Of a DNA stretch of 64,000 nucleotides, positions 2,444-64,000 are shown one piece after another. The position numbers and the translations under genes are program-made. This DNA is from a virus, in the IMG/VR virus record IMGVR_UViG_3300044766_000192, positions 1 through 64,000 of that record. One strand, written 5' to 3'. The stretch's first letter is position 1. Each line of letters opens with the position of its first letter. The notes beneath the pieces are model-generated. The model was not told the DNA's origin, did no database searches, and saw nothing but the letters and a program-made list of their open reading frames with translations.

Positions 2444-2652
2444 GCTGGACCTGCGAAAAGTGCGGAACGGCGCACGACACGGACGCTCAACGTGAAGACT
2501 GCAAGAAAGCTCAGCGCGTGGTCACGTTCTGGGCTCTCAGCATCTTGCTCGGCCTGGTGATCGTGATCGCTGTTCCCGTGTTCCTGTGGAACCAGTATTG
2601 CTACGGCGACTGGAAGTGCGCGGTCATGCACTGCGTGAAGGTCGTCAAGTGA
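2440..2652 (+). CDS. Small membrane protein with CxxC
   Basis: ATGA overlap, one TM. Confidence 0.5.
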   Translation: MSWTCEKCGTAHDTDAQREDCKKAQRVVTFWALSILLGLVIVIAVPVFLWNQYCYGDWKCAVMHCVKVVK

Positions 2653-8211: not shown

Positions 8212-11200
8212 ATGGTTGCCGTTGCCGAGCAACGTGTGAGCTTGCCGTTGCTTCGCGGCAGTGCTGAGGGCGCGGATTGTATGGCGTGCCCTTTCTCGCA
8301 CGAGGGTCAGCCGAATCGCCCCGTGTTCTCGGAGCATCCTGAGAAGCCGCTGTGGATCTTGATTGGCGAAGGCCCCGGCTTCAATGAAGTCCGTTTTGGT
8401 CGATGCTTCGTTGGAGCATCGGGCTCCGAGGTCGACAAGATTCTGACGAAGATCGGCCGCCCGCGCGAAGAGATCTACGTCGGCAACGCGACGCTTTGCG
8501 TTGATGGCTCAACAAATGTTCGACTCGGCGATGGTTCACTTGGGCGCATCGACCAACTCGTCAAGAGTCGATACTCAGGTTTGGTTCAATCAGTAGCGGC
8601 GGATGGAAGCGTCGTACTTCGCAGAGTGATCGGCTGGTACAGGAACAAGCGTGGTCTCCGTGAAATGCGCGAGGTCTCTACGCGAGGGGCTCAGCACACT
8701 GGTGGGCTCGGGCGGATTCATACGACGATGACCGAAGATCATCCCGTTTTGACCCCTGAGGGTTGGAAAGTAGCTGGAGAGCTGAATGGCGGATCGATCG
8801 CAACCGGCGATCTAGATCCAGGACACATTGGGCAACAGATCGCATACGGCACACTGCTAGGTGATGGAACGCTGCAACGAGGATCTCTCATCGTCCGTCA
8901 CGCCGTCGATCAAGCAGAGTACGCCATGCTCAAGGGGCAGGCGTTGTCTGGGATTGGCATTGGTTTGATCGAAGCGCCTCCGCACGGAAATCAGGTTCAA
9001 CGACAAGTCGGATTCAGAACTAAGGCTGGCTTGTGGGGGCATGCACTTCGATCTTCGTTCTATCCCGACGGAAAAAAACGAATCCCAAAAGAAGTCATCT
9101 CAAACGCGAGTATTTTGTTGTTTGCGATCTGGTATCTCGATGATGGCTCGATGAGCCATCGTGCCGAAAGTGGAAGAAAGCCGCGTGCAGAGATTTGCGG
9201 TGTGGCTTTTCCAGAAGAAGATCTGTTGGCGGCATCAGCCTCACTGAGATCTCTCGGCTTCGAGAACCGGGTTTATCGGGGGCGGATTCAGTTTGGTGTT
9301 GAAGCCTCTGCGAAATTCAGTCGAGCCATTGCTCGATTCGTTCCGCCGAGCATGAGCTACAAGTTGAGACCAGAGGATCGTGATCTATACGATCCGACCA
9401 CATTTCAGGCTGCGTCGGCCATTCCGTTTTTCGCTAAGGCTGATAGCGTTTTTGTGAGTCCGCGAGGGAAGCGTGAGCAGTCAGCGGTGTACTGCTTAGA
9501 AGTAGAGGATACGCACAACTTCATCACGCCAGCCGCAGTCATCCACAACTGCATCCCGAAGCCTGGCAGCACCGACGTTCACAGAAACCAAGCCGCAGCG
9601 GCGTGCAGAGAGCGAATGCAGCGAGAGCTGTCGCAGTTCCCCGGCATCCCGATCCTGACGCTCGGCGCTGTCGCTGCGCGCAGTGTCATCCCGAAAGAAG
9701 CGCTCGACGCGATCGATCCGCCAGATGTTCCTGAGTCTAAGCAAAAGCGCCAAAAGAAACGTCAGGGCGCCGAGACCGATGTCAAACAGAAGCGCGAAAA
9801 GCGGCTCGGCAAGCTGGAGCTGCTGGAGCTGCGAATCTTCAGGGAGCTGCTCGACTACCACAAGCGTGGGATCGCCGACGAGATCCGCCAGCGGTTCAAG
9901 AAGAAGGCGACGCACGCGCAGATCGAAGAGAGGCTAGAGCTTGAACGAGCGCGCCAGGGTATTGAGATCAAGGCCAAGGCCGACGCGCTGATCGAGCTGG
10001 AACAAGTCGAGGTCGAGAAGGCGAAGAAGCCCAAGAAGAAAAAGCCGATCAAGATCAGCGACATCGTGAGCACGTGTTTCGACGTCGACGTCGATGGCTC
10101 GGGTCTGCGCCCGGTGATTCCCGGGATTCATCCGGCGGCGCTACTACGCGGTGGCGGGCGCTCGATCGCCGGCAGTCATACGCCCGATCTCGCGTTCGTA
10201 AACCTGATGTACGACTTCGGCAAGATCGACGCGCTCGCTCGTGGCAAAGACGTTCGGCTCAAGCTCAACGTCGAGGTCGAAGGTCAAGACAGCGCCAAAG
10301 CTACGCGGCTATTCGTCGAGGCGATCCAACGGGCTTTCGACGAGGGCGAGGTAGCAATCGACCTTGAGACCTACGTCGATGATCCGTTGCGCCACCACGC
10401 ACTCATGGCCTACGTCGCGAAGATTCGCGCGATCGGCTTGGCAACGAAAGAGAAATCGATCTCGGTGCTCTGGGATCTGATCCAGCCGTGGGGGCTCTCG
10501 TACTTTCAGGCGATGCTGGCTACAGCCGACATCAAGATCGTCACCCAGAACGGGATCTACGATCGAACGGTCTTGCGCGCCAACGGCTACGAGATCTGCG
10601 GCGACAACTTCGAGGACACGCTGTACGCCCATCACTCGGCGTTTCCTGGTTGTGCGCACAACCTCCAGCAAATCACGGCGCAGTTCTTTGCCGTCTCACC
10701 GTGGAAGTGCTTGCAGGCTGATACAGCTGTTTTGCTGCCAGATCGCTCGACGATATCGATTCGCGAGGCAGTTCAACGGCGGATCCCGGAAGTCCTCTCC
10801 TATGAGGATGGGCAGATCGTTCCTAAACGGGTGCTTGGCTGGCACGAGGCGCGTGCTCCGGGTCAAGCGTGGGTCTCCATCAAGACTGAGCGCAGCGACG
10901 CGAAATACAATCGAGGGCTCATCGTTACTCCGAATCATAGGGTGATGACGCAACGAGGGCTTGTAGAAGCTCAAGAGCTGATCGCTGGGCAAGATCGAAT
11001 TGCAATTGATGAGCCACAACTATCGGACGATCAGATTTCAACGGCGATTGGAACGCTCTTAGGTGACTCAAGTGTGTTTGTCAGCCGTTCGTATCATCAT
11101 CGACCTTGGGAAGCCTCAAGAGCTAGTATTCGTGGTGGGCACGCCAACGAGGGGCTCCGCGATTGTAAGGCCGAATCGCTTGCGCTTGGGACCTCCGGGC

Positions 11201-14200
11201 AGTGTGTGCCTGCACATTCTCGCGTGTCGGGGGGCGTGACCATCAACGCTTCAAACTTCTACGCCTACGGTACAAGGTGGGCCTTTCAGTACATGCAGAT
11301 CGCAAAGCTCGTCTACGACGACGAGTGGAAGCGCCGAATCAAAGCCAAAGCGCTCGAAGTTCTTGGTCGTCGTGGGCTTGCCATGATGTACATGGACGAT
11401 GGTGACCTCCATAAGACCAAACAAACTATTGGGGCAGGTTTTGCGACGAACGGCTTTCCGCTAGAAGACGTTGAGCTGTTCGTTGGATGGTTGAAGGGCA
11501 AGTACGGGGAAGTTAGCATCTACAACTCGCGTGGGCCTTACGTGGCGATGTCGACCGTCGCGACTAAAAACATGCTTGAGGATCTTCGCGGGTTCATTCA
11601 CCCATCAGTCAAGTACAAGACCATTTTCGATGATCCATTCAAGCCCGTTATCAAAGGATATGGTGCTTACCACGCCGCGATTAGGTCTGTTGATCGGATT
11701 GATCGTGTGGCCTTGCGCAAGGGTCGTAGCTCACACGCAACTGACTATCGGTATTGCCTGTCCGTCGAGGATACGCAGCTATTCTATACGAACTACGGGC
11801 TTGTCTCGAACAGCGAGTTTCGCAACGCCGAGGAAGACACCGCGCGATTGCTTGCGTACAACGCCAAAGACACGGGCGCGACGCTCGCGATCAGGCCGGC
11901 GATCGAAATCGTCGTCAAGAAAAACGCGAACGAGCGGACCTACGCGATCGATCTAAAGATGGCCGAGATCGCGAGCCGCATGCACCGCGTCGGCATGCCG
12001 GTGTCGCGCGAGGTCAATTCCGAGCTGCTTACGACGTTCAGTAAGAACGTTGCCGAGGGCCGACAGCACGTCGAAGCTATCGCGAACGATCCGAAACTCC
12101 ATGAGGGAATCTTGCATCATCTCTCGTTGGAGCAAGCCAAGATCCAGCGCAAGGCCGACAGCATCGACTTCGAGGAACGCTACAATGCACGCCGCGGCAA
12201 GATTCTGACCGACGAAGCCAAAGGCAAATGGCGCTGGAAGATCTCGGCTGCCAAGCACGTCGCGGCGTTGCTTCAAGCGATCGGCGTGAACCTGCACCAA
12301 GTCACTAAGAACGGCTCGATCTCGACGAAGAAAGAGATCCTAGAGTCACTCGTTGACGTGCCGATCGTTCGTGATCTGCTCTTGTTCCGCGAAAACGACA
12401 AGCTCCTGTCAACGTTCATCTGGCAGATCTTCGATCGAACCGTCGATGGGAATATCATCCAGCACGGCTTCGCTGACGCCAACGATCGCATCCACCCGAT
12501 CTGGAACGTCCACAAGATCTCGGGCCGGTGGGCGAGCTACGAGCCCGTCGTCTCGAACGTCCCGAAGGCCAAGTACAAAAAGCTCGAAGGCGGCAAGCTC
12601 AAGCTCGTGCGGCCCAACTTGCGCCGACAGGTTCAGGTGACGCGCAAAGGTCGCAAGCTCGTTGGCTTCGATTTTTGCTTGGCGAAGGGAACCCTCGTTG
12701 ACACGCCGAACGGTCACACGCCGATCGAGAAGTTGAAAATCGGTGACCTCGTGTTCTCGTACAATCACGAAACGCAGCGTCCTGATTGCTCGCGCGTGTC
12801 ACAGCGCCTTTTCACCGGGATGCAGAAAACATTGAAGGTGATTCTCGACAATGGGGAGGAGGTTCGTTGCACAGCGAACCATCGGTGGCTAACGCGCAAG
12901 TATGGGTCTGGCCGAGCTGTCTTCGAGGTTGAAGCTAGCGATCTGAAGCCCGGAATGCGCCTGCTACCGTTGCGTCGAACGTATTCGGGCCCAGAACGAA
13001 GCTATGAGATCCTCTACTCGTATTCGGCATTCGAATACGTCAAGACGCATGTCGTTGTGGCAAAGGCACATCTTGGAGATCGGCCAAAGGGCCACGACAT
13101 CCACCACCGCAATGAGAACCCTAAAGACAATCGCCCAAGAAACCTCGAATACAAGCTCGAACATGATCATCTCGGTGAGCACAGCGCCTCCAATACCTCC
13201 GCTCAGTGGAAAGATCCGGCTACTCGCCAGAAGATGGTTGAGGGGATTTCAGCTTCGATCAAAGCACGTGGCGGTTATCACGGAGCCAACAACCCAAACT
13301 TTGGGAAGCGCACTGGTGAAGATGGTACGTGCCCGAATTGCGGAGCCGACACTTACTTCGGTGGAAAACACCCGAAGCGCTTCTGCTCTAAGCCTTGCTT
13401 CTACGAATTCAGGCGAACCAATCCTCGAAGGAGAGGTGAGAAATACGATGACCTTAACCACAAAGTGGTCGCCGTCATTGATGACGGGCTCGTCGTTCCT
13501 ACCTACGATATCGAAGTCGAGCGAGATCACAACTTCGCGCTAGCAGCCGGCGTTTTCGTCCATAACAGCCAACTTGAAGCTAGAAATCTTGCGTTGATCT
13601 CCGGCGACGAATTCTTGTGCAAGATCTTTGCAGAGGGCCGCGATATCCATACCGAATGCGCGCGAGTGATCTTCAAGGGCTTCGATCAACGTGAGGAGAA
13701 AGAGCGCAAACAGCTCCGCGATCTCACCAAGCAGATCGAATACGGAACCTTCTACGGTGGTAGCCCTGAGACCTGTTGGAAAGTCCTACTCAAAGATGGC
13801 CACAACGTCAAACTCGTCGATGTCGCTGCGTCGATCGGCACGCTTATGCGGCAGATGCCCGGGATCGTGCGTTGGCAGCGTCAGACTGTCGCCAAGGCGT
13901 CACTACCGCCGTTCACGATTCGCGATTTCGTGCTCGGGCGGCGCCGTGTATTCCCGATGGGTCAGGTTGATCCCAACGAGGCGTTGAATTTTGAGTCACA
14001 GGCGACCGCCGCTGCGATCATGGACACCGGCATGGCCGCGATGGACGCGCGGATTATCGATCAGGGCTACAAAGAGGTCGACTGCATCGTGCAGGTTCAC
14101 GACGCGGCGGTATACGAAGCGTGGGAAGATGATGCCGAAGACATCGCGCAAGACATCCATGAATGCTTCTCGCAGCAATACGAGCGCGATGGCCGGACGA

Positions 14201-14250
14201 TCCCCTACCCCGTCGATGTCAAGATCGGCGACTCGTGGGATCAGATGTAA
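8212..14250 (+). CDS. polA: Family A DNA polymerase with N-terminal family-4 uracil-DNA glycosylase and 3'-5' exonuclease, three inteins (about 996 aa spliced)
   Basis: IGEGPG..E...FVGASG and HPAALLR (UDG); DLET, YNAKD (exo); SGRW, DF|SQLE, R..TKQIEYG, QVHDA (PolA). Confidence 0.93.
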   Translation: MVAVAEQRVSLPLLRGSAEGADCMACPFSHEGQPNRPVFSEHPEKPLWILIGEGPGFNEVRFGRCFVGASGSEVDKILTKIGRPREEIYVGNATLCVDGSTNVRLGDGSLGRIDQLVKSRYSGLVQSVAADGSVVLRRVIGWYRNKRGLREMREVSTRGAQHTGGLGRIHTTMTEDHPVLTPEGWKVAGELNGGSIATGDLDPGHIGQQIAYGTLLGDGTLQRGSLIVRHAVDQAEYAMLKGQALSGIGIGLIEAPPHGNQVQRQVGFRTKAGLWGHALRSSFYPDGKKRIPKEVISNASILLFAIWYLDDGSMSHRAESGRKPRAEICGVAFPEEDLLAASASLRSLGFENRVYRGRIQFGVEASAKFSRAIARFVPPSMSYKLRPEDRDLYDPTTFQAASAIPFFAKADSVFVSPRGKREQSAVYCLEVEDTHNFITPAAVIHNCIPKPGSTDVHRNQAAAACRERMQRELSQFPGIPILTLGAVAARSVIPKEALDAIDPPDVPESKQKRQKKRQGAETDVKQKREKRLGKLELLELRIFRELLDYHKRGIADEIRQRFKKKATHAQIEERLELERARQGIEIKAKADALIELEQVEVEKAKKPKKKKPIKISDIVSTCFDVDVDGSGLRPVIPGIHPAALLRGGGRSIAGSHTPDLAFVNLMYDFGKIDALARGKDVRLKLNVEVEGQDSAKATRLFVEAIQRAFDEGEVAIDLETYVDDPLRHHALMAYVAKIRAIGLATKEKSISVLWDLIQPWGLSYFQAMLATADIKIVTQNGIYDRTVLRANGYEICGDNFEDTLYAHHSAFPGCAHNLQQITAQFFAVSPWKCLQADTAVLLPDRSTISIREAVQRRIPEVLSYEDGQIVPKRVLGWHEARAPGQAWVSIKTERSDAKYNRGLIVTPNHRVMTQRGLVEAQELIAGQDRIAIDEPQLSDDQISTAIGTLLGDSSVFVSRSYHHRPWEASRASIRGGHANEGLRDCKAESLALGTSGQCVPAHSRVSGGVTINASNFYAYGTRWAFQYMQIAKLVYDDEWKRRIKAKALEVLGRRGLAMMYMDDGDLHKTKQTIGAGFATNGFPLEDVELFVGWLKGKYGEVSIYNSRGPYVAMSTVATKNMLEDLRGFIHPSVKYKTIFDDPFKPVIKGYGAYHAAIRSVDRIDRVALRKGRSSHATDYRYCLSVEDTQLFYTNYGLVSNSEFRNAEEDTARLLAYNAKDTGATLAIRPAIEIVVKKNANERTYAIDLKMAEIASRMHRVGMPVSREVNSELLTTFSKNVAEGRQHVEAIANDPKLHEGILHHLSLEQAKIQRKADSIDFEERYNARRGKILTDEAKGKWRWKISAAKHVAALLQAIGVNLHQVTKNGSISTKKEILESLVDVPIVRDLLLFRENDKLLSTFIWQIFDRTVDGNIIQHGFADANDRIHPIWNVHKISGRWASYEPVVSNVPKAKYKKLEGGKLKLVRPNLRRQVQVTRKGRKLVGFDFCLAKGTLVDTPNGHTPIEKLKIGDLVFSYNHETQRPDCSRVSQRLFTGMQKTLKVILDNGEEVRCTANHRWLTRKYGSGRAVFEVEASDLKPGMRLLPLRRTYSGPERSYEILYSYSAFEYVKTHVVVAKAHLGDRPKGHDIHHRNENPKDNRPRNLEYKLEHDHLGEHSASNTSAQWKDPATRQKMVEGISASIKARGGYHGANNPNFGKRTGEDGTCPNCGADTYFGGKHPKRFCSKPCFYEFRRTNPRRRGEKYDDLNHKVVAVIDDGLVVPTYDIEVERDHNFALAAGVFVHNSQLEARNLALISGDEFLCKIFAEGRDIHTECARVIFKGFDQREEKERKQLRDLTKQIEYGTFYGGSPETCWKVLLKDGHNVKLVDVAASIGTLMRQMPGIVRWQRQTVAKASLPPFTIRDFVLGRRRVFPMGQVDPNEALNFESQATAAAIMDTGMAAMDARIIDQGYKEVDCIVQVHDAAVYEAWEDDAEDIAQDIHECFSQQYERDGRTIPYPVDVKIGDSWDQM
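8497..9549 (+). mobile_element. Intein 1 of polymerase (in UDG domain), LAGLIDADG
   Basis: CVDGST...TEDHP...GTLLGDG...WYLDDG...VIHN|C. Confidence 0.9.
10708..11811 (+). mobile_element. Intein 2 of polymerase (in exonuclease domain), LAGLIDADG
   Basis: CLQADT...TPNHR...GTLLGDS...YMDDG...GLVSN|S. Confidence 0.88.
12676..13566 (+). mobile_element. Intein 3 of polymerase (in motif A), HNH endonuclease
   Basis: CLAKGT...TANHRW...HHRNENPKDNRPRNL...VFVHN|S. Confidence 0.92.
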
Positions 14251-19211: not shown

Positions 19212-19586
19212 GTGCTCGGCCAGGCGTTGCTCGGCAAGGTCTGGCAACGCAATCCAAGGAAAGGCGCCGCGATGCTATCGCTTGAAACCTGGGAGCAAAC
19301 CGCGATCTTCGATCCGGCCGACCCCACGCAGAAGAAGATCGAGAAGTACGTCGGTATCCCTGGCGGGTACGGCACGTTCTACTTCAACAAGGTCCCGACC
19401 ACGAGCCAGTTGCAAGGCCCGTTCACCGACGGAATCTCGACGGGTGCCGGTGTCGGTATCGGCCTCGTGATCGCGAGCGTCGTGCTCGGCGCTGGCGCGT
19501 GGGCCGCGCACAAGACCGGCTTGCTCAAGCGCGGCAGGAAAGCCATCGCCGGACTCGGCGGCTACCGGCGTCGTCGGAGGCGCTAG
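19212..19586 (+). CDS. Virion membrane protein, C-terminal TM plus IAGLGGYRRRRRR tail
   Basis: Single TM, LxGxG-type site, poly-Arg. Confidence 0.65.
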   Translation: MLGQALLGKVWQRNPRKGAAMLSLETWEQTAIFDPADPTQKKIEKYVGIPGGYGTFYFNKVPTTSQLQGPFTDGISTGAGVGIGLVIASVVLGAGAWAAHKTGLLKRGRKAIAGLGGYRRRRRR

Positions 19587-20061: not shown

Positions 20062-20499
20062 ATGCCAAGCATTCTTACGCTCGAAGGGCCGCGACTGCTC
20101 GGGTTCGGCACGCCGAAGCTCAAACTCCTACGCATGAACGGCGCGATCGGCGATGCGATCGGCTGCGCCGGTTGTCAGCCGCGAGGTTTCGGCGACGCCG
20201 CGAGTGACGATCTAGCACACTTCAACAACGCGCTCACCGCGTACATGGCGCAGGTCGCCGCGGTTAATAAGTCGTCGACGTGGTTGGGCCTCATCGGCGG
20301 CGTTGCGGGCGTGGTCGCGGGTGTTCTGATCAGCCGCCGCGTAAGCAAGCGCAAATACGCCAAGCTTGGCGGCGCGGTCGCTGGCGGGCTCGGGCTCGGA
20401 CTCGGGACGTTCTTCGCGAGCCGATCGATCATGATGCCGGACTTCGTTGCACCGCAGACGACGGCGCAACAGCTGCTCACAAAAGATCTGACGTTCTGA
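20062..20499 (+). CDS. Virion membrane protein, 2 TM
   Basis: MPSILTLEG leader, LLGFG and RGFGD sites, two Gly-rich TMs. Confidence 0.65.
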   Translation: MPSILTLEGPRLLGFGTPKLKLLRMNGAIGDAIGCAGCQPRGFGDAASDDLAHFNNALTAYMAQVAAVNKSSTWLGLIGGVAGVVAGVLISRRVSKRKYAKLGGAVAGGLGLGLGTFFASRSIMMPDFVAPQTTAQQLLTKDLTF

Positions 20500-20996
20500 T
20501 GGCGAAGCGTCGACTACCGATCGAGCCGTATGAAGGCCGTGACAAGCCCTATCACGGTCCATCAGAAGACTACCCGCGCGATCGAAGACCGAGTGGTGAT
20601 GAGGGTCGTGACAAGCCCTATCACGGCCCATCTGAGGACAATCCCCGCAAGGGCCTTCGCGGGCTCGGTATGGAGCGGCTAGTTTGCACGTCCGAACCGA
20701 CGTCGCTCTCGCGTGTGCGCCTCAACCGAGGTGGCTACGTCGCTCCTATGGCCGGTATTCGACGTTGCACCGATCCATCGGGGAAGCCTGGCGGCTCATC
20801 TAGCTACTTCGGCCAGTTCTGCGCGAGCCCGGCGGCGGCCCAGACCTGCGCGTCGGCGAGCGATGGGCTTAGGTCGGGTGGCGTCGGCGGGATCGGCGTC
20901 GGTATGGGGGCCATTCCGCCCATCGCGTTGAAGTCGGCGACGAGCGTCGCCCAGTCGATGCCGTTCGGCGCTTTATCTGCACCTTTGGCGAGCTGA
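20499..20996 (+). CDS. Hypothetical protein with duplicated EGRDKPYHGPSED and LRGLG site
   Basis: TGATG coupling; 3' end overlaps the convergent peptidase gene. Confidence 0.5.
   Translation: MAKRRLPIEPYEGRDKPYHGPSEDYPRDRRPSGDEGRDKPYHGPSEDNPRKGLRGLGMERLVCTSEPTSLSRVRLNRGGYVAPMAGIRRCTDPSGKPGGSSSYFGQFCASPAAAQTCASASDGLRSGGVGGIGVGMGAIPPIALKSATSVAQSMPFGALSAPLAS
20532..20639. repeat. Two 39-bp imperfect direct repeats, 69 bp apart
   Basis: GARGGYCGTGACAAGCCCTATCACGGYCCATCNGARGAC at 20532 and 20601. Confidence 0.85.
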
Positions 20997-21715
20997 TCGG
21001 GCGTGAGGATCACGAACAGCTGGCCTCCGACTCCGCGCGCGGCATACTGCGCGACGGCAGGCCACGTGATCGTACCGAATAGGCCCCACGAATCGATCTG
21101 CACGCCGCTCGGATCGTAGCCGAGGCCGATGACGGCGTGCCCGTTGTTTGGATCTGGCTGCCCGGCAACGTCCCACACGAAGCCGTCGGTTGATGGAAAT
21201 GGGTTGATCCACTCATCGGGCAGCTCGATGCCGAACATCAGATTCTCGAACAGGAACATCGCGGCCTGGACTTCAGATTGATCCGTCGCGTCGACGGCGA
21301 GCCAGCCGCAAATCTTCGTACCATCCACGAAGCCTTGGTTCTGCCAGAAGTTCAGCGCGGTTTCTTCGTCGCAGCCCTGATCCGTGTTCGGATCGTTGGG
21401 ATCGTAGCCGCCGATCGCGCTGTAGTCCCCGACGATCTGGTTGTCCGCTGCGGTGAACAGTACGCCGGCATTTCCGGTCTCGACGCCGACGATGTGGTAG
21501 CCGCCTGCGATCACGCAATCGCCGAGGCGATCGTTGCCGTAGATGTTCCGCAGCACCGGCAATGCTTTCGCGCTGTAGTCGCATGAGGCTGGCATGGCCG
21601 GCAGCTTCAGATAGTGCTTCAGACGAAGGCGCATCCCGAGCGCGCGAGGACGCCGACGTCCCATCTTGACGGTGCGGCCGAGGTGCGGAGCGGCGATCTC
21701 TTTGAGGGCTGTCAT
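20804..21715 (-). CDS. Papain-like (C1-type) cysteine peptidase
   Basis: GND.LGDCV (Cys), NGHAV (His), DSWG. Confidence 0.7.
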   Translation of the reverse strand: MTALKEIAAPHLGRTVKMGRRRPRALGMRLRLKHYLKLPAMPASCDYSAKALPVLRNIYGNDRLGDCVIAGGYHIVGVETGNAGVLFTAADNQIVGDYSAIGGYDPNDPNTDQGCDEETALNFWQNQGFVDGTKICGWLAVDATDQSEVQAAMFLFENLMFGIELPDEWINPFPSTDGFVWDVAGQPDPNNGHAVIGLGYDPSGVQIDSWGLFGTITWPAVAQYAARGVGGQLFVILTPDQLAKGADKAPNGIDWATLVADFNAMGGMAPIPTPIPPTPPDLSPSLADAQVWAAAGLAQNWPK

Positions 21716-24101: not shown

Positions 24102-24434
24102 CTACGCGCGAGCCTTGCGCTTGCTGATTGCATAACCGATACCCCCGATCAAACCCAACGCGCCGACAAGAATCGCAAGCGGCTTCCAGCCGATGCTTTC
24201 GAGTGACGTCGCCATGCCGGCTTGAGCCGGCCCTACAGCCAGCGCTGGGTAGCAGGCGCCGTTTTGAAGGACATAGCCCGGTGCGCAAGTCCGCGTAACA
24301 GGATCTGGGTCAAATGCGATTTCGCCACCTGTGGCGGTCAGTGCACAGATCGGATCGTTCGGGTCGTAGCTCGGGCTGCCTGGCGTACACGGATCATTCT
24401 CGTCGATGATGTCAGCCAGGCCGATCGTGATCAT
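24102..24434 (-). CDS. Cys-containing virion membrane protein
   Basis: MITIGLAD leader, C-terminal TM plus KRKARA; TAGCCT 7 nt upstream. Confidence 0.7.
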   Translation of the reverse strand: MITIGLADIIDENDPCTPGSPSYDPNDPICALTATGGEIAFDPDPVTRTCAPGYVLQNGACYPALAVGPAQAGMATSLESIGWKPLAILVGALGLIGGIGYAISKRKARA

Positions 24435-43564: not shown

Positions 43565-43789
43565 TCAGCTGAGGGCTGTGATGCGGCATTGCGGGCACGG
43601 CATTCGCTTGACCCCATGATGAACATCAGCTCGATTTTGTACGAAGACGGCGTCGGGCACCTGAAGTACAGGCGCGCTCGTCGCGTCGTAGTTTTTGCCG
43701 CAGTAGGTACCGATCTCAATATGGAGCCGCACGCGGCCCGTTGATCGAATCACGTGGAGTGCACCGTCTCGATCGATTGCAGCAATCAT
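43565..43789 (-). CDS. Small Zn-binding protein
   Basis: LH...TYCG...CPQC. Confidence 0.45.
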   Translation of the reverse strand: MIAAIDRDGALHVIRSTGRVRLHIEIGTYCGKNYDATSAPVLQVPDAVFVQNRADVHHGVKRMPCPQCRITALS

Positions 43790-44151
43790 GTTTGGGCTCC
43801 GTGGGCCATCATCAAAATCCACTGAATCTGATTGTTCGCGAGCGAGCCTTCAGCTTTGAACGAGCCGATGCCGCGCGATAGCACGAGCGTCGTCGGCGTC
43901 GCCGTGACGCCATACTTGTCGGCGAATGCCTGCACGTCGACGTTCGGGCTTGCTGCGTCATAAACCAAAACCGGGATCGCTCCTTGCGGGATCGGTTGGC
44001 CTTCCACGTAGACGACAAACGGGAAGCCCTGTTGCCGGAGCGCTTCGACCTCGACGAGAAACCGCGGCAGATAGCTTTCACACGCCGGACACTCGCCCAT
44101 CGCGAAGATCGCGATCACCACGTGCTGACCGTTCAGCTCGATTTGACTCAC
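43786..44151 (-). CDS. Thioredoxin-like protein
   Basis: ECPAC active site, FADKYGVTATPT. Confidence 0.8.
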   Translation of the reverse strand: MSQIELNGQHVVIAIFAMGECPACESYLPRFLVEVEALRQQGFPFVVYVEGQPIPQGAIPVLVYDAASPNVDVQAFADKYGVTATPTTLVLSRGIGSFKAEGSLANNQIQWILMMAHGAQT

Positions 44152-54188: not shown

Positions 54189-54899
54189 TTAGACGACCGA
54201 GCGTCGGATCAGGCCGTAGAAGTAGACCTTCTCGTCGGCGAAGTTCAGGTCGTCACCAGCATCCGATGCGTCCTGGGCGATCTGCAACGCCGCTTCCGGT
54301 TGGAAGCTGAACGTGTAGCCGAGGTTCTCACGCATCCACACCGGCAGCACGAGCGCGTTGCGATCACGCGGGCTCGGGATGCCGTTCTGGGCGATCTCGA
54401 AGAACGCGTTGGTCGAGAACACCGCGAAGCCGTGACCCTGCGGATAGTCCTGGATCACACCCGACGTGTAGACCTTGCCGTTGTAGTTGTACTCCAGGAA
54501 CGTCACGCGATCGACCTGGAACAACGTCACGAGCTGCGGAGGATCCGACAGCGCGCCATTGGTGTCCGGCAGCTGCGGATCGCTCTTGCCTTCGGCGGGC
54601 CGCATGACTCGCGTCATCTTGCAGCCGACGCCGTAGACGTACATCTCCCAGTCCTTCGGGAGACCCGCCGATCCCGCGCGCGGGATGTTCGTGTCGACAC
54701 GCGTGCTCGTACGCGTGCCACCAGGGATCTGCTGCGATCGTCCGGCCGAGAACGCCTCGACGGGGCCGTTCTGCTGGTTGTTGAACTGGACCGTCGAGTA
54801 GAGCTTGTCGTCGATCCAATCCGAGATCTGGATCGTCTGCCCGTTGTCCATCGTGATCGTGGTTGTGCCTGGTGCTACGCCAACAGTTCCGCCTGCCAT
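54189..54899 (-). CDS. Putative major capsid protein, single jelly roll
   Basis: 236 aa beta-rich; LYST..F, DTN....LP....V, NG.P, YG..RRSV pattern; AAGGAG SD and terminator; follows a membrane/core gene. Confidence 0.6.
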   Translation of the reverse strand: MAGGTVGVAPGTTTITMDNGQTIQISDWIDDKLYSTVQFNNQQNGPVEAFSAGRSQQIPGGTRTSTRVDTNIPRAGSAGLPKDWEMYVYGVGCKMTRVMRPAEGKSDPQLPDTNGALSDPPQLVTLFQVDRVTFLEYNYNGKVYTSGVIQDYPQGHGFAVFSTNAFFEIAQNGIPSPRDRNALVLPVWMRENLGYTFSFQPEAALQIAQDASDAGDDLNFADEKVYFYGLIRRSVV

Positions 54900-55002: not shown

Positions 55003-55626
55003 CTAGTGATGCTGGCCGTAGAGCGTCGCGCCGTAGCGCGCCGAGAGCCCCGAGATGTTCGGGCCGCCCGCCGCGAGCTGCTGACCGAGCAGATTCACCG
55101 GAGGCCGAGCACCGCCACCGCGCGCTGCGCCGAAGCCCGAGACTTGCGGACCGGCAACGCCAGGGATCGTGCCTTGCGGATGGCTGGTTGCCGAAACCGA
55201 CGGCAGTCCGAACTGGCCACCGTTGAGAGCACTGATCTGTGGCAGGCCCATCTGACCGTTGAGGGCGTTGATCATCGGCATGCCCATGCCCTTGACCGGC
55301 TGAGCTGGCGCCGATGGCGCGAACAGCACGCCTTCGAGCCACTTCAGGCCGCTCGCGAGGAACGCACCCGCGAACGCGCCCCACGATGCGTGACGTGTGG
55401 ACTTCATCGCCCACAGCGCACCGCCACTCGCGAGCCCGACGAGGAAGCCGATCAGATCGGCATTCTGTTGCGCAGCGCTGCCCGGTGTGCCGCGTGACAG
55501 AGCCATCGAGGTGACGCTTGAGACGCCGCCGCCGATGAGCATGCCGTAGAGCGGGTTCATGCCGGGGTTCTCACCGAATTCGTTGAGGCCGAGCAGGTCG
55601 ACGTTTCCGAGCAGCTTGGTGGTCAT
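55003..55626 (-). CDS. Major membrane/core protein, 3 Gly-rich helices, multiple xxG sites in tail
   Basis: GAAGGAG SD; VKGMG, LNGQ, LNGG, VSGFG, ISGLS. Confidence 0.7.
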   Translation of the reverse strand: MTTKLLGNVDLLGLNEFGENPGMNPLYGMLIGGGVSSVTSMALSRGTPGSAAQQNADLIGFLVGLASGGALWAMKSTRHASWGAFAGAFLASGLKWLEGVLFAPSAPAQPVKGMGMPMINALNGQMGLPQISALNGGQFGLPSVSATSHPQGTIPGVAGPQVSGFGAARGGGARPPVNLLGQQLAAGGPNISGLSARYGATLYGQHH

Positions 55627-55642
55627 GAGATCTATCGCTCCT

Positions 55643-55831
55643 TCAGGGTTTTTTCGGGGCTGGGCAGCTGCCCTTGAACAGCCAGCCACTTCTTGTCTTC
55701 GCGCTCTTGCCGACGAAACAAAGGCGGGCCCCTCGTTTCGTCCTCGTATTGAAAACGCACTTGCACTCGCCGATGCCGAGCTGCTTTCGGCCGGATTCGC
55801 CCGAGCCCGAGAGCGTCATGATGCTCGGCAT
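55643..55831 (-). CDS. Small basic Cys protein with MPSIMTLSG leader
   Basis: GAGGAG SD; leader nearly identical to that at 20062. Confidence 0.65.
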   Translation of the reverse strand: MPSIMTLSGSGESGRKQLGIGECKCVFNTRTKRGARLCFVGKSAKTRSGWLFKGSCPAPKKP

Positions 55832-55841
55832 CGTGATCTCC

Positions 55842-56375
55842 TCAGTGCCAAGGCCAGCGCAGGCCCCGCCACATCATCATCGTGGTCTTGTCGATTCCCT
55901 CCTGCATGTTCGGCGGAAGGTTCGATGATCGGCCGTACGCCTGCGCGACCATCTGATGGATCTGCCGTTGCGGCCCGCCCCACGGACCGATGCCGGCAGC
56001 CGGGCCGTACGCACTTTGCTGTACAGCGACACCACCGCCCGGAACCGAAGAGTCGGCGAACCCCACCGGAGCGCTCGCTTGCATCTTGCGCATCCACGCG
56101 CGAGCCCGAACACCCGCCCACCAATTCCGCAGCCGCGGAAATAGTGGAGCACCGAGCCCGCGCAGCACCGGGCGATAGACGCCGGGGCCTGACAACGTCA
56201 TGCCGCTCTGCGGGCCGGTCGTGAACGCATTCGCGACCATCTGAACGTCTTGTCCGGGGTTGTAGCCAACCATCGGCGAGAGAACGCTCGTGCGCATCAC
56301 GCGATCGGGCCGCATGAAGTGCGAGCCGCCGCCGTGCCGAGGAACTGCGTCACCGAGAAGTGAAATCTGGTGCAT
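55842..56375 (-). CDS. Low-complexity core-like protein with LLGD, LSGPG and LRGLG sites
   Basis: TTGCCC-N17-CATGCT-N7-ATG. Confidence 0.6.
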   Translation of the reverse strand: MHQISLLGDAVPRHGGGSHFMRPDRVMRTSVLSPMVGYNPGQDVQMVANAFTTGPQSGMTLSGPGVYRPVLRGLGAPLFPRLRNWWAGVRARAWMRKMQASAPVGFADSSVPGGGVAVQQSAYGPAAGIGPWGGPQRQIHQMVAQAYGRSSNLPPNMQEGIDKTTMMMWRGLRWPWH

Positions 56376-59110: not shown

Positions 59111-59313
59111 GCGAGCGCTACAAGCCGAAGGATCTCCTCCGAGCACGCGGCACGAGCCCCGTGAAGACTCAACCCAAGCCAACGGCGATCGACTATCACC
59201 AACAGCTACTACGAAAACGAACAGCTGAGCGGATCGGTGGAAGCCCCGTCGAGTGCAGTCACGGCGTGCCGTGGGTCGACTGCACGATCTGCTCGAAACC
59301 GATCAAGCGCTAG
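59107..59313 (+). CDS. Small protein with C-terminal CxHG..CxxC
   Basis: ATGA overlap. Confidence 0.5.
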   Translation: MSERYKPKDLLRARGTSPVKTQPKPTAIDYHQQLLRKRTAERIGGSPVECSHGVPWVDCTICSKPIKR

Positions 59314-59738
59314 CGACGGCGCTTTTTCTTGCCGCCGAGATGCTTCGCGAGGAACCAAGCACCCGTGCCGAGCGCCGCGACGATGCCGAGCTTGGGAACC
59401 CAGCCCCATGTATCTGGGAACACGCCCGCGAGAGCTGGATATGGACGGAGACCTGGAGGATGCTTCCAACCGATCTTCCTATCAGACCCCCAGACGGTTC
59501 CCCCGCCGAGCGAGCTGACGAAGCGCTTGAGCGGCGGATCGACCATCGTGATCCCGAGACCTGCAAGCCCGCGACGGTCGCTCGTTCCGGGGCCGAACGT
59601 CCCGAACACCGTCGGGTTGAGGGGCTGAACAGTCGTCTGCATCACGCCCTCGGGCATCACGAGATTCCGGTTGAGGTTGTAGTTGACGGTGGGATCTGGC
59701 GAGAACTGCCAGTCAGGAATGATGCCGAGCGAGATCAT
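59310..59738 (-). CDS. Virion membrane protein
   Basis: MISLG leader, LAGLG site, C-terminal TM plus KKKRRR. Confidence 0.7.
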   Translation of the reverse strand: MISLGIIPDWQFSPDPTVNYNLNRNLVMPEGVMQTTVQPLNPTVFGTFGPGTSDRRGLAGLGITMVDPPLKRFVSSLGGGTVWGSDRKIGWKHPPGLRPYPALAGVFPDTWGWVPKLGIVAALGTGAWFLAKHLGGKKKRRR

Positions 59739-60058: not shown

Positions 60059-60316
60059 TCAAGCCCTCTTCGGTTTGCCGTAGCCTTCAGCCAGGGCGAT
60101 GGTTGGAACGATCACCGGGAACAACCCACCGAGGATGAACCACAAAATCCCCCACCCGATCGACTTGTTGCGACGGTAGCCGTGGAAGCCGCTGACCGCC
60201 GCTGACGCCGTTGCGAGGTAGGCGAGCCACGGAATCTTTGGCGGCATCGGAACAGGCGGCATCGCAGCCGGATCGATCAACGAAGGATCGTCGCTGAGCC
60301 CGATGAGAGTGATCAC
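60059..60316 (-). CDS. Small 2-TM virion membrane protein
   Basis: FHGYRRN.SIGW...W......P......A.GY; TAGGAT-N6-GTG. Confidence 0.7.
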   Translation of the reverse strand: MITLIGLSDDPSLIDPAAMPPVPMPPKIPWLAYLATASAAVSGFHGYRRNKSIGWGILWFILGGLFPVIVPTIALAEGYGKPKRA

Positions 60317-60338: not shown

Positions 60339-61055
60339 CTATGCGTCAAAATCTGTGATCCGGCCGACCGGCATCTCGACGCCGAAGTTGTTCTTACCGG
60401 GCAAGGTCGAATCGAGCGCGAGCCATTTCGTCGGCGCGACCTTGGGCAAGCCCGCCACCGCGTAGATGTGCGAATCTTCCCCGCGCCGTGTCTCGGCGAC
60501 CACGCGCAAGCGCGGCGTGATGCCGTTGAGTGCGAGCAGCGTCGCCGAAAGCGCAGAGTGATCGTCGCAGTCGCCACCACGAAATTCGTTGGTGCGCTTG
60601 GGGCTCTGGAACAGATCGATACCTTCGACGGGACCGTTGCGGCCAAACTTCACCGGAGCGATGTCGCCCGTGTAGCGCACACGACCCTTGACGTAGTCAT
60701 AGACGGCCTTGGCTTCGCACGTCCCATCACGCTCGGGACAGTGCTGCGTGATCCCGAGCGCGAGCTTACGCATCTGCGGATCCTGCACGCCTTTGTAGAC
60801 GAGATCTTGGATCGACGCGACGCGCTCCTCGATCGGCATCAGGGCCGAGCGCCGATGCTCCGTCCGCATGCCGCCTGATTCAGTAGACCCAACGAGCGGC
60901 GCGGGCGAGTAGCGCTTGGTGACGAGCCGATACTTCGGCTTGAACAGCCCCAAGCCCGCGAGCTGCCGCTGGCGCCGGCCAAAATAGACCAAACCGCCGA
61001 TGATCGCGATGGCGCCGACCGCGATGCCGAGGCGCTTCTTGTTCCGAGACGTCAT
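60339..61055 (-). CDS. Transglutaminase-like cysteine protease, putative maturation protease
   Basis: VRYT.D, GDCDD (Cys), SHIY (His), WLALD (Asp); N-terminal TM then LAGLG. Confidence 0.8.
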   Translation of the reverse strand: MTSRNKKRLGIAVGAIAIIGGLVYFGRRQRQLAGLGLFKPKYRLVTKRYSPAPLVGSTESGGMRTEHRRSALMPIEERVASIQDLVYKGVQDPQMRKLALGITQHCPERDGTCEAKAVYDYVKGRVRYTGDIAPVKFGRNGPVEGIDLFQSPKRTNEFRGGDCDDHSALSATLLALNGITPRLRVVAETRRGEDSHIYAVAGLPKVAPTKWLALDSTLPGKNNFGVEMPVGRITDFDA

Positions 61056-61070: not shown

Positions 61071-61889
61071 TCACGCGCGCTTGTGGTGGCTGAAGATGAG
61101 AGCGAGCGTACCGAGTAACGCGAGGCCAGTCGGGACGTACCAATAACGAGCCGCTACTTCTGGAAGGGAAACACCCATACCGGATTTGCACTCGTTCGAC
61201 CAGCACCACCACGGTCGCGGCGCCATGCAGCCGTCGCCTGTGGGCGTAGGGATCATTCCAGAAGGACACGTCATCGTCGACGGCGGTGTCATCGTCGACT
61301 GAGCGCCAGCGGTCGGTGGCGGGCACAGGCTGATGTCCTGCGCTGAGCTTCCATCTGGACACAAAACGAAAGACGCCGGTTGTTGATCCTGTGGCAACGG
61401 CGGTGGTGGTGGCTGATAGATCGGCACTACGAGCGGCGGCGGCGTGGCAATCAGTGTCGAGGGATCAACGCCGAGATACGACGCGTAGCTCTGTACGAGC
61501 GCCTCTACGTTCGCTGCGATCCAATCAGCATTGACGCTGACGTCGAACAGCGCGAACTGCGGGATCCCGGTGTTCGCCATAAACAGGATCGCGTTGATGG
61601 TCGTCTGTCCGATGTTGCCGTCGACACTGATCGACGGAAAGCTCTGACCTGCTGGAAGATTTGCAGCAACTGCCAGGTTGAGCAGCACTTGAAGCTGCTG
61701 GACGCAGTAGCCTGGCGTGCACGCGTAGCTCGGTGGCGGGGCGTAGCTCGTCGACGGTACGAGCGCGCTCGTACTTTGTGAAGCAGCCGCACGCGTTGGA
61801 AATGATCTCGTCGGCAATAGCGCTGTAGCCGGATCTGATGGATCTGCTGTGCCGCCTGGTGCCATCCCGAGGCTCGTAATCGAGAGCAT
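61071..61889 (-). CDS. Membrane-anchored protein with peptidoglycan-binding-like and Cys-rich domains
   Basis: VQQLQVLLN...VDGNIGQTT, poly-Pro, CPDGS, C-terminal TM. Confidence 0.7.
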   Translation of the reverse strand: MLSITSLGMAPGGTADPSDPATALLPTRSFPTRAAASQSTSALVPSTSYAPPPSYACTPGYCVQQLQVLLNLAVAANLPAGQSFPSISVDGNIGQTTINAILFMANTGIPQFALFDVSVNADWIAANVEALVQSYASYLGVDPSTLIATPPPLVVPIYQPPPPPLPQDQQPASFVLCPDGSSAQDISLCPPPTAGAQSTMTPPSTMTCPSGMIPTPTGDGCMAPRPWWCWSNECKSGMGVSLPEVAARYWYVPTGLALLGTLALIFSHHKRA

Positions 61890-61954: not shown

Positions 61955-63064
61955 ATGCTCTCGTTCTCGCTCTTGGGGGCGCTACCTACCGATGCGATCT
62001 CGCTCATCGCCCATCAGGCGACGTTTCTTCCGGCACGGCAGCCACTGACACCCGGCATGTGCTCGGCAGACGGGCAATTCATTTGGAACGGTCCTGACCC
62101 CGGCGGCTACTGGTCGCGGCTCGTAGCAGGTCAGCAATGCACGAGCCTCTCGACAGTTGGCCCAACGGTTCAGACGGAGCCCCAAGGCGGTATCGGTCCG
62201 ACGTTGTGTTATGCGCGCGGGACCCACGACATCGTCGAGTGCCCACCTACGGATCCCAACGCCCCCGCGAACGTGCCAAAGCCCGTCGATTCAAAACCGA
62301 TGAAGATGATCCAGGTCGGGCCGTTCACGATTCCCTATCAGGCGCAGCAATTCACGATCCACTGGAGCACTGCTCTGCCGTCGGACTGGCAGACCTTCAT
62401 CAACAAAGAGCTAGCGCACGACTGCGACAACTGCGTCGTCAGCTCGATGAAGGACGCGAGCGACATCCCCTACCTGAAAGATTTTCTCGGCGGGGGCATG
62501 CCGGCACAGTTCAACCAAGATTTCGTCGTCGGTGCGAAGGGCACGATCCACGGACAGTTCACCGGTCAGATCACTGTCACCCCGGACACGGATCTGTCGA
62601 GCTACAACCCGATCGTCCTGACTCAGCACCCGGATACTGGCGAAGACTTCGGCATCTACATGGCGCTCGGTGTTCAAGATCTATCGCGCCCCTACGACGC
62701 AAAGACCAACCCTGCGGTCCTACAACTCCTGTGGCGAAAAGTTGAGCGGACCTGGTACGCCGCAGCGTGGAATTGGATCAAGCACATTGTCGCCAAGATC
62801 ATTGAGATCGGCGGCGAGCTGATCTGCGGCTACGTCTGTACGCCAGATGCCGTCGACAAAGCCGTCAAAGCGGCGATGGCCAGCAAGAATCCGTACGCCG
62901 TGGCTGGAGCTGTGATCGGTTCTGCCATCGCCGTCGGAAACTGCACGTGTCCGCTTCCGCCGTTGGTGCCCGTCGTGCCGCCGCCGGCAAGCTACACGGG
63001 GTGGATCATCGCCGGGCTCGTTGCAGTAGGCGTCATCGGCGCAGTCGTATACCGGCAGTCATGA
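61955..63064 (+). CDS. Cys-containing virion membrane protein
   Basis: MLSFSLLG leader, Pro linker, C-terminal TM; TAGGGT-N6-ATG. Confidence 0.7.
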   Translation: MLSFSLLGALPTDAISLIAHQATFLPARQPLTPGMCSADGQFIWNGPDPGGYWSRLVAGQQCTSLSTVGPTVQTEPQGGIGPTLCYARGTHDIVECPPTDPNAPANVPKPVDSKPMKMIQVGPFTIPYQAQQFTIHWSTALPSDWQTFINKELAHDCDNCVVSSMKDASDIPYLKDFLGGGMPAQFNQDFVVGAKGTIHGQFTGQITVTPDTDLSSYNPIVLTQHPDTGEDFGIYMALGVQDLSRPYDAKTNPAVLQLLWRKVERTWYAAAWNWIKHIVAKIIEIGGELICGYVCTPDAVDKAVKAAMASKNPYAVAGAVIGSAIAVGNCTCPLPPLVPVVPPPASYTGWIIAGLVAVGVIGAVVYRQS

Positions 63065-63076
63065 TAGGGTAGCCCC

Positions 63077-63571
63077 ATGCTCGCTTTCTCGTTGCTCAGC
63101 GGCCCGCTCACTGTTCGCCTGCTTGGGAACGCGTCCATCGGGTTTCGTGGTGTTCTCGGTAGCCTCGGCGCCGATGTCGATCAGAATGCCGGAGATGGGA
63201 GTAGCTGTCCCACAGAAGAACCCGTGTGGAGCGACTTCTATGGATCATGCGTCGTCGCCTGCCCCGCGGGGCAGACATACGACAACAGCGGCAACTGTGT
63301 CGGCGGCGGCGGTGGTGGAGCACAGCCATCACAACCATCCAGCGGCGGATCATGGTGGTCACAGGCGATCACGGCGTTCACGAAGGGCGCGGCGCAGGGC
63401 GCACTCGCACCCAAGACGCCCACGCCGACGTACCCGAAGCCGATCGCCGTCGCGCCCTGGTACACGCAGTGGTGGGGCATCGGTGCGATTGCCGTCGGTG
63501 TACTCGGCGCCGGAGCGCTAATCTTGAGCCCAAAGAAGTCGACTGCTGTTGCGGGGCATCGTCGCAGGTAG
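63077..63571 (+). CDS. Cys-containing virion membrane protein
   Basis: MLAFSLLSG leader, LGSLGA, C-terminal TM plus VAGHRRR; TAGGGT-N6-ATG. Confidence 0.7.
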   Translation: MLAFSLLSGPLTVRLLGNASIGFRGVLGSLGADVDQNAGDGSSCPTEEPVWSDFYGSCVVACPAGQTYDNSGNCVGGGGGGAQPSQPSSGGSWWSQAITAFTKGAAQGALAPKTPTPTYPKPIAVAPWYTQWWGIGAIAVGVLGAGALILSPKKSTAVAGHRRR

Positions 63572-63997: not shown

Positions 63998-64000
63998 ATG

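Follow-up and report, generated by a model that had tools for sequence, protein, structure and literature searches.

What does a single membrane-anchored enzyme have to do with a five-residue peptide motif that recurs in otherwise unrelated proteins of the same virus? The window analysed here, i.e. the whole stretch of DNA under study, comprises the first 64 kb of one 80,419-bp contig of an uncultivated virus (IMG/VR record IMGVR_UViG_3300044766_000192). At 60339-61055(-) it encodes a transglutaminase-fold cysteine enzyme of 238 residues with an ATG start, a candidate peptidase, in which the sequence LAGLG follows the N-terminal transmembrane (TM) anchor. An earlier interpretation of this DNA, hereafter the sequence-only reading, had described an adenovirus-like maturation system, in which such an enzyme would free itself from the membrane and process virion precursors at LxGxG-type sites. 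We tentatively propose that the enzyme is a virion maturation or processing peptidase recognising an L-x-G-L-G-type motif, cleavage itself being presumed from comparative evidence, and weigh this proposal below against three other accounts of the enzyme and the motif.

Conservation of the L-x-G-(L/F/M)-G motif

Compared across orthologues, L-x-G-(L/F/M)-G is a genuine conserved short linear motif whose position is preserved among the orthologues in each of seven unrelated families, namely the enzyme, where it lies in the linker behind the anchor, and at least six others. The orthologues were taken from 18 IMG/VR loci, retrieved with the enzyme profile on contigs of 30-138 kb. Linkers around the conserved motif are otherwise 16-32% conserved, and even next to flanks of 16-20% identity the motif sites persist in 70-80% of orthologues.

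The motif takes a characteristic form in each family. The 142-residue protein encoded at 59310-59738(-) combines a conserved N-terminal domain, a variable linker with LAGLG (59553-59567), a C-terminal TM helix and a KKKRRR tail; its family motif reads S-L-x-G-L-G-I-T, and 9 of 11 orthologues keep G[LMF..]G with flanking columns 16% identical. The 177-residue protein at 55842-56375(-) carries both LSGPG (56181-56195) and LRGLG (56151-56165). Here the family form G-M-x-L-S-G-L-(G/R) is found in 10 of 13 locus orthologues with flanks at 20%, in agreement with 42 database homologues, in which the site stands directly after the conserved N-terminal domain. T-S-L-S-G-L-G is kept in 10 of 14 orthologues (flanks 16%) of a protein encoded from genome position 64847, and L-R-G-L-G is placed 8-12 residues ahead of a TM helix and basic tail in 8 of 10 orthologues of a membrane protein encoded from position 63998. 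Directly upstream of the capsid candidate gene described below, a 207-residue protein (55003-55626(-)) has three Gly-zipper hydrophobic helices, followed by three tandem (A)L-N-G-L-G-(I/M)-P repeats (55192-55305(-)), which are kept in 9-12 of 15 orthologues, and then by VSGFG (55129-55143). A 62-residue basic, Cys-containing protein (55643-55831(-)) bears the motif in its leader, MPSIMTLSGSG; the N-terminal form I-M-T-L-S-G-x-G characterises the family, with IMTL(S/A/D)G kept in 12 orthologues, and shares its M-T-L-S-G core with the internal site of the 55842 family. In the enzyme family, [LMF]G is present in the anchor linker of 83 of the 89 TM-bearing homologues and G[LMF]G in 49 of them, where roughly 30% and 4%, respectively, would be expected by chance, and Gly36, which ends the LAGLG of the enzyme, is invariant in the enzyme alignment (A1).

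N-terminal leaders and internal sites thus have a common core, L-x-G followed by L, F or M and usually by G or R. In an unbiased count of tripeptides conserved in at least 60% of members, GLG is conserved in more ortholog families than any other (5 of 18), with three for the runner-up. Leucine stands at -2 in 50 of the 125 instances outside TM helices, and the residue between the glycines is L in 94, F in 20 and M in 11. Among all GxG tripeptides, leucine at the central position is 2.9-fold over composition, and GGG is over-represented too. Beyond the orthologues of this genome, the protein directly upstream of the capsid gene has 3-4 copies of G[FLM]G in a divergent clade, and in the phage SSIP-1, a cultured relative introduced below, four small proteins of the structural module, gp36, gp37, gp52 and gp53, have G[LM]G within residues 17-34, at residue 34 in gp37 and 31 in gp53, and the linker of gp34 has it at residue 211. 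Synonymous codons differ between copies, which argues for selection on the peptide. The motif as a DNA element was also considered, and is ruled out by the same variation of codons among copies. The recurrence from which the sequence-only reading started is thereby matched by conservation in homologues, positional in all seven families.

On this genome alone the case for the motif would be weak, and the decisive evidence is comparative. Every copy listed in the sequence-only reading is present in the DNA, including IAGLG (19545-19559), LLGFG (20095-20109), LSGSG (55799-55813) and, all within 55003-55626, VKGMG, LNGG and VSGFG; the LRGLG copy that it had assigned to 20499, however, is located at position 20655 in an open reading frame (20280-20996(+)) of doubtful coding status, as this overlaps 20804-21715(-) by ~190 nt and is not called by the gene model. 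Measured against within-protein shuffles, the proposed enrichment of [LIMV]xG[LMFSP]G appears only in the gene set of the sequence-only reading itself, chosen post hoc (11 against 3.0 expected), and not genome-wide, where 16 copies against 11.2 +/- 3.3 expected are not significant. Narrower forms depart further from expectation, with [LIMV]xGLG at 9 against 3.8 (0.017 of shuffles reach 9) and L[RA]GLG at 4 against 0.2.

The enzyme and its place beside the capsid gene

By profile, triad and fold, the enzyme is a member of the transglutaminase-like superfamily. Pfam Transglut_core (PF01841) matches residues 107-215 (E=1.1e-5, 26.1 bits against a cut-off of 23). The catalytic triad, which spans 60411-60569(-), consists of Cys163 in GGDCDD (60567-60569), His196 (60468-60470) and Asp215 (60411-60413), and is invariant in 37 aligned homologues of 52-89% identity, as is a Cys106/Cys113 pair. 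A basic N-terminus precedes the Gly/Ala-rich TM anchor at residues 8-26 (60978-61034(-); hydropathy 1.81), which is part of a helix covering residues 3-32 in the AlphaFold2 model. RRQRQ-LAGLG then occupies residues 27-36, which puts LAGLG (60948-60962(-)) in the flexible linker that joins the TM helix to the catalytic domain, whose first strand is at residue 41. The predicted local distance difference test score (pLDDT) of the model is 90, and its sole soft segment, residues 31-40 (59-68), is the LAGLG linker. The description of a Cys-His-Asp transglutaminase-like protein with QLAGLG after its own N-terminal TM helix, given in the sequence-only reading, is therefore confirmed with respect to reading frame, anchor, motif and triad.

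The top fold neighbours are bacterial putative cysteine proteases, 3kd4 (Z 13.5; root-mean-square deviation 3.0, 140 aligned) and 3isr (Z 11.9), followed by TG3, FXIII and TG2 (~10), TglA, LapG (9.6), PeiP (9.5), CPR-C4 (9.0), PeiW (8.9) and PNGase. Because the triad is invariant, the model scores a pLDDT of 90 and the best fold matches reach Z 13.5 and 11.9, the protein has a real and probably active transglutaminase/papain-fold Cys-His-Asp domain. One homologue (L014:9899-11623(+)) is extended to 557 residues by an insertion of ~320 residues that splits GGD|C...N|CDD, and its placement indicates an intein exactly at the catalytic Cys, which fits an indispensable active site. No PDB chain was matched by the enzyme profile (alignment A1) at E<=1, and neither PHROGs nor NCBIfam yielded a family for the enzyme. 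Other peptidase families gave no Pfam match in the 118 of the 122 predicted proteins that are at least 45 residues long.

More than 500 homologues of the enzyme were found in metagenomes, many on contigs of 70-93 kb and most with PF01841. The TM anchor is present in 89 of 120 homologues and missing from distant TM-less forms; of the metagenomic homologues, those most distant (L016-L018) begin with the catalytic domain and have neither anchor nor linker. Enzyme and motif are linked in these forms, in that homologues without the TM helix are without both the anchor and the motif.

The virion module of this genome is defined by a candidate jelly-roll major capsid protein, a beta-rich protein of 236 residues encoded at 54189-54899(-) and represented by 16 orthologues. 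When loci were collected with this candidate, 27 were obtained, and in 25 of them the enzyme gene lies no more than 10 kb upstream of the capsid gene; one of the two remaining loci ends at the capsid gene. The synteny holds down to 33-43% capsid identity, which marks the enzyme gene as a core gene of the morphogenetic block. The gene is likewise core to a large lineage of uncultivated viruses.

A single homologue, gp34 of SSIP-1, was found among 50,697 phage records, making SSIP-1 the sole cultured relative (30.6% identity; tblastn E=2e-14, blastp E=1.6e-19). The protein keeps the Cys/His/Asp triad, and the annotation of SSIP-1, a tailless icosahedral phage with a membrane, lists it as structural. 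In likeness to the enzyme it shares the triad positions and the association with structure, but differs in that it is without the N-terminal anchor, beginning ~2 residues after the LAGLG position, and has instead a C-terminal extension with a TM helix. Besides gp34, no gene detectably common to SSIP-1 and this genome was found. Given the capsid-gene synteny in 25 of 27 loci and the structural annotation of gp34, the enzyme belongs to the virion module, in agreement with its assignment in the sequence-only reading.

Genome context and further motif-bearing proteins

The contig encodes 122 genes according to a codon-model gene call. A 126-bp sequence at 23-148 recurs at the contig end (80294-80419), so that the genome is essentially complete, either circular or terminally redundant. 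Genes of replication and metabolism include a family-A DNA polymerase with inteins, UvrD-like and SNF2 helicases, a Dam methylase, ThyX, endonuclease VII and an integrase. The polymerase gene (8212-14250(+)) contains intein, LAGLIDADG and HNH modules and an N-terminal UDG-like domain, and an intein is also present in a 791-residue PD-(D/E)XK protein (2649-5024(+)). Among the predicted proteins, none was recognised as a terminase, portal, HK97 capsid or tail protein; a DUF87/HerA-type ATPase, a GH25 muramidase (E=3.6e-9) and, from a match that falls short of the Pfam cut-off (E=0.013), an SLT-like protein are encoded. Proteins with one TM helix number more than 30, and an Arg/Lys tail often comes after the helix. 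The AlphaFold2 model of the capsid candidate is beta-rich and weak (pLDDT 64), and its best fold matches, the capsid proteins of SPV1, HHIV-2 and HCIV-1, which are single jelly-roll proteins of membrane-containing viruses, are likewise weak at Z 5.7-6.7. Profile comparison of the candidate with gp45 and gp46 of SSIP-1 found no relationship. Taken together, the genome is likely that of a large tailless membrane-containing virus. A search of genome contigs for the host returned one 28-kb contig of a metagenome-assembled genome labelled Actinomycetes and weak matches elsewhere, nothing of which was informative.

Further motif copies are located elsewhere in the genome. A 124-residue protein (19212-19586(+)) has a TM helix, then IAGLG and an RRRRRR tail; in five orthologues, GL(S/A/G)G is kept ahead of the poly-R tail, as is a second site, (L/V)xG..LG, some 10 residues in front of the TM helix. 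A related arrangement, TM helix, (S/T/A)GL(G/A/S)G and a terminal poly-Arg tail, is seen as a second C-terminal element in proteins of the 19212 and 64847 types. The protein of the latter family in this genome, 261 residues long (64847-65632; L001:1847-2632(+)), consists of an N-terminal part ending in a TM helix and a polytopic C-terminal part, and seems to unite two genes that most related genomes keep apart. The 145-residue protein at 20062-20499(+), which contains LLGFG, has the leader MPSILTLEGPRLLGFG; no orthologue was found in five related genomes.

The 74-residue membrane protein at genome positions 63998-64222(+) (L001:998-1222) is built of an N-terminal strand, LRGLG, a TM helix and a basic tail. 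Its N-terminus has the sequence VGVAPGTTT in common with that of the capsid candidate at 54189-54899(-), and on this resemblance the protein may be a membrane-to-capsid linker that mimics a capsid arm.

Very short N-terminal leaders were observed in unrelated membrane proteins, for example MLSFSLLG, MLSITSLG, MLAFSLLSG, MISLG and MITLIG, which are too short for Sec signals. The genes concerned are 61071-61889(-), neighbour of the enzyme gene, 61955-63064(+), 63077-63571(+), 59310-59738(-), 60059-60316(-) and 24102-24434(-). A thioredoxin-like CxxC protein is encoded at 43786-44151(-), and many small Cys-rich basic proteins are found in the same genome; together with the Cys106/Cys113 pair of the enzyme these hint at virus-directed disulfide formation.

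Proposed roles for the enzyme and the motif

Where a motif is common to many proteins of one module that are otherwise unrelated, something must read it, and the only peptidase-fold enzyme of the module is the most economical candidate. It is favoured further because its own tether has the motif and its anchor-less relatives start just past it. We infer that the motif is read by this enzyme and that the reaction is hydrolysis, as well as the bond cut and the timing, and envisage the following sequence of events. The enzyme would be tethered by its N-terminal helix to the viral or the host inner membrane and would recognise L-x-G-(L/F/M)-(G/R) in at least seven families of the morphogenetic module, within exposed linkers that otherwise evolve fast. 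Cutting at the motif would take place during particle assembly or maturation, whereby ectodomains would part from their C-terminal anchors of TM helix and basic tail, small basic proteins would lose short N-terminal leaders, and the multi-repeat protein beside the capsid gene would be cut several times. The catalytic domain could likewise be released from its own anchor at LAGLG.

Such a system would parallel adenain (MEROPS C5, clan CE), a virion-packaged cysteine enzyme of a jelly-roll-capsid virus. The (M/I/L)XGX-G and (M/I/L)XGG-X sites of adenain follow a similar hydrophobic-x-G-x-G grammar, with cleavage here presumed, and in both systems the sites are spread over several core- or cement-like proteins without mutual relationship and over the short leaders of basic proteins. 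However, adenain has its triad in the order His-Glu/Asp-Cys and a different fold, whereas the present enzyme has Cys-His-Asp in a transglutaminase fold, is membrane-anchored, belongs to a virus with a prokaryotic host and meets L, F or M rather than any residue at the central position. No adenain or Ulp1 structure is among the fold matches listed, and the enzyme has no Pfam adenain match. Of the adenovirus-like system with a different papain-fold protease, the sequence-only reading was right about the site grammar and the transglutaminase/papain fold, but the label holds as an analogy only, and its interpretation as a whole is partly supported.

Closer in fold are LapG (of the BTLCP group) and CPR-C4, with Z 9.0-9.6 and the same Cys-His-Asp triad, though both are non-viral. 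Both are proven peptidases; LapG is site-specific and frees a protein from its membrane-proximal anchor, and by analogy the enzyme would work most like peptidases of this type. LapG cuts at a di-alanine site and is soluble, periplasmic and calcium-dependent. Papain-fold enzymes of clan CA such as the C39 bacteriocin-leader peptidases, coronavirus PLpro and the USP deubiquitinases cut after (L/I/V)-x-G-G and thus set a precedent for the reading of a hydrophobic residue with small glycines behind it; these are not among the structural neighbours detected, and the motif here has a bulky L, F or M between the glycines.

Several observations weigh against processing by the enzyme. Products of cleavage have been seen for none of the proteins, and fold neighbours of similar Z include wall isopeptidases (PeiP/PeiW), PNGase and the cross-linkers FXIII, TG2 and TG3. 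Motif copies of the 19212 family flank the TM helix on both sides, and the motif of the 55643 family is in a basic protein, where it is probably on the DNA side, so that a single membrane-tethered active site cannot reach all of them after assembly. The three evenly spaced LNGLGIP repeats by the capsid gene might just as well serve as a series of docking elements, and the N-terminal leaders of 8-9 residues are conserved beyond the need of P4-P1, which hints at targeting. To this are added the lack of significant genome-wide enrichment of the broad pattern and the capsid assignment that defines the virion module, which rests on a weak model (pLDDT 64, Z <7).

Part of this evidence is shared by an alternative that we regard as unlikely, though the most credible of the three considered, in which the enzyme is a virion-associated or signal-anchor-release (SAR)-type cell-wall endopeptidase, acting on stem peptides or cross-links of peptidoglycan for genome entry or lysis, and the motif an unrelated, uncut element by which membrane proteins and the enzyme itself dock to the capsid lattice. 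PeiP and PeiW (MEROPS C71), the pseudomurein endoisopeptidases of methanogen phages, are phage-encoded enzymes of the same transglutaminase fold with a Cys-His-Asp triad (Z 9.5 and 8.9; viral match Q77WJ4), the Gly/Ala-rich anchor helix resembles a SAR domain, and PG_binding_3 matches the product of the adjacent gene, 61071-61889, below threshold (E=0.002). Lytic enzymes are also part of the virion in membrane-containing phages, PRD1 among them, and lattice contacts are suggested by the regular tandem LNGLGIP repeats and by the capsid-like VGVAPGTTT of the 74-residue membrane protein. PeiW and PeiP, however, are lysis enzymes that cut a cell-wall isopeptide bond with the aid of wall-binding repeats and have neither a TM anchor nor a shared motif system, while no repeat domain is present in the 238-residue enzyme by Pfam or in the model. 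Moreover, the GH25 muramidase and the SLT-like protein are already encoded in this genome, and SSIP-1 has an annotated endolysin separate from gp34. A wall enzyme would leave the joint loss of motif and anchor in the TM-less forms unexplained, and a docking element has no obvious need to be at the extreme N-terminus of a small basic protein.

An enzyme of the sortase or transglutaminase kind, forming a thioester at the motif and transferring the released protein to an amine of a capsid lysine, phosphatidylethanolamine or the cell wall, would create covalent links instead, but we judge this improbable. An N-terminally anchored Cys enzyme with substrates composed of ectodomain, motif, TM helix and Arg/Lys tail does parallel sortase systems, and true transglutaminases are found among the structural neighbours (Z ~10). 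On the other hand, the fold is transglutaminase-like rather than a sortase beta-barrel with Cys-His-Arg, and the motif is 8-70 residues away from the TM helix, where sortase substrates have it directly adjacent. Classic transglutaminase chemistry does not fit a motif without a conserved Gln or Lys, there is no evidence for an acceptor, and the label 'LPXTG-motif cell wall-anchored protein' given to several homologues by the Joint Genome Institute is a composition artefact.

That the motif is a functionless by-product of Gly/Leu-rich, low-complexity linkers, as the plentiful Gly of these proteins, the over-represented GGG among GxG and the unenriched broad pattern (16 against 11.2) might suggest, is very improbable in view of the positional conservation in seven families across 30-70% identity with flanks varying in length and sequence, of GLG as the single top family-conserved tripeptide and of the preference for L at -2.

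We therefore retain, as a provisional proposal, virion processing at the L-x-G-L-G-type motif by the tethered enzyme. Within the jelly-roll (PRD1-adenovirus) lineage, cysteine proteases that act in maturation are considered characteristic of the eukaryotic branch: none have been identified in the prokaryotic classes, Tectiliviricetes included (PMC8328091), and the protease of the eukaryotic jelly-roll viruses has been presented as acquired in eukaryotes (PMC6260650). Literature searches found no description of a transglutaminase-like enzyme acting in maturation in membrane-containing phages. At somewhat less than an even chance in our estimate, a prokaryotic membrane-containing lineage with jelly-roll capsids has independently evolved a virion processing system composed of a tethered enzyme and a portable L-x-G-L-G tag, whether for cleavage or for sortase-like coupling to capsid or lipid. 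If true, proteolytic virion maturation would have arisen independently, with a different papain-like fold, in widespread uncultivated membrane-containing bacterial viruses of 70-140 kb. This would provide the first functional handle on gp34 of SSIP-1, and a simple sequence tag that predicts virion proteins and their mature ends in otherwise unannotatable genomes.

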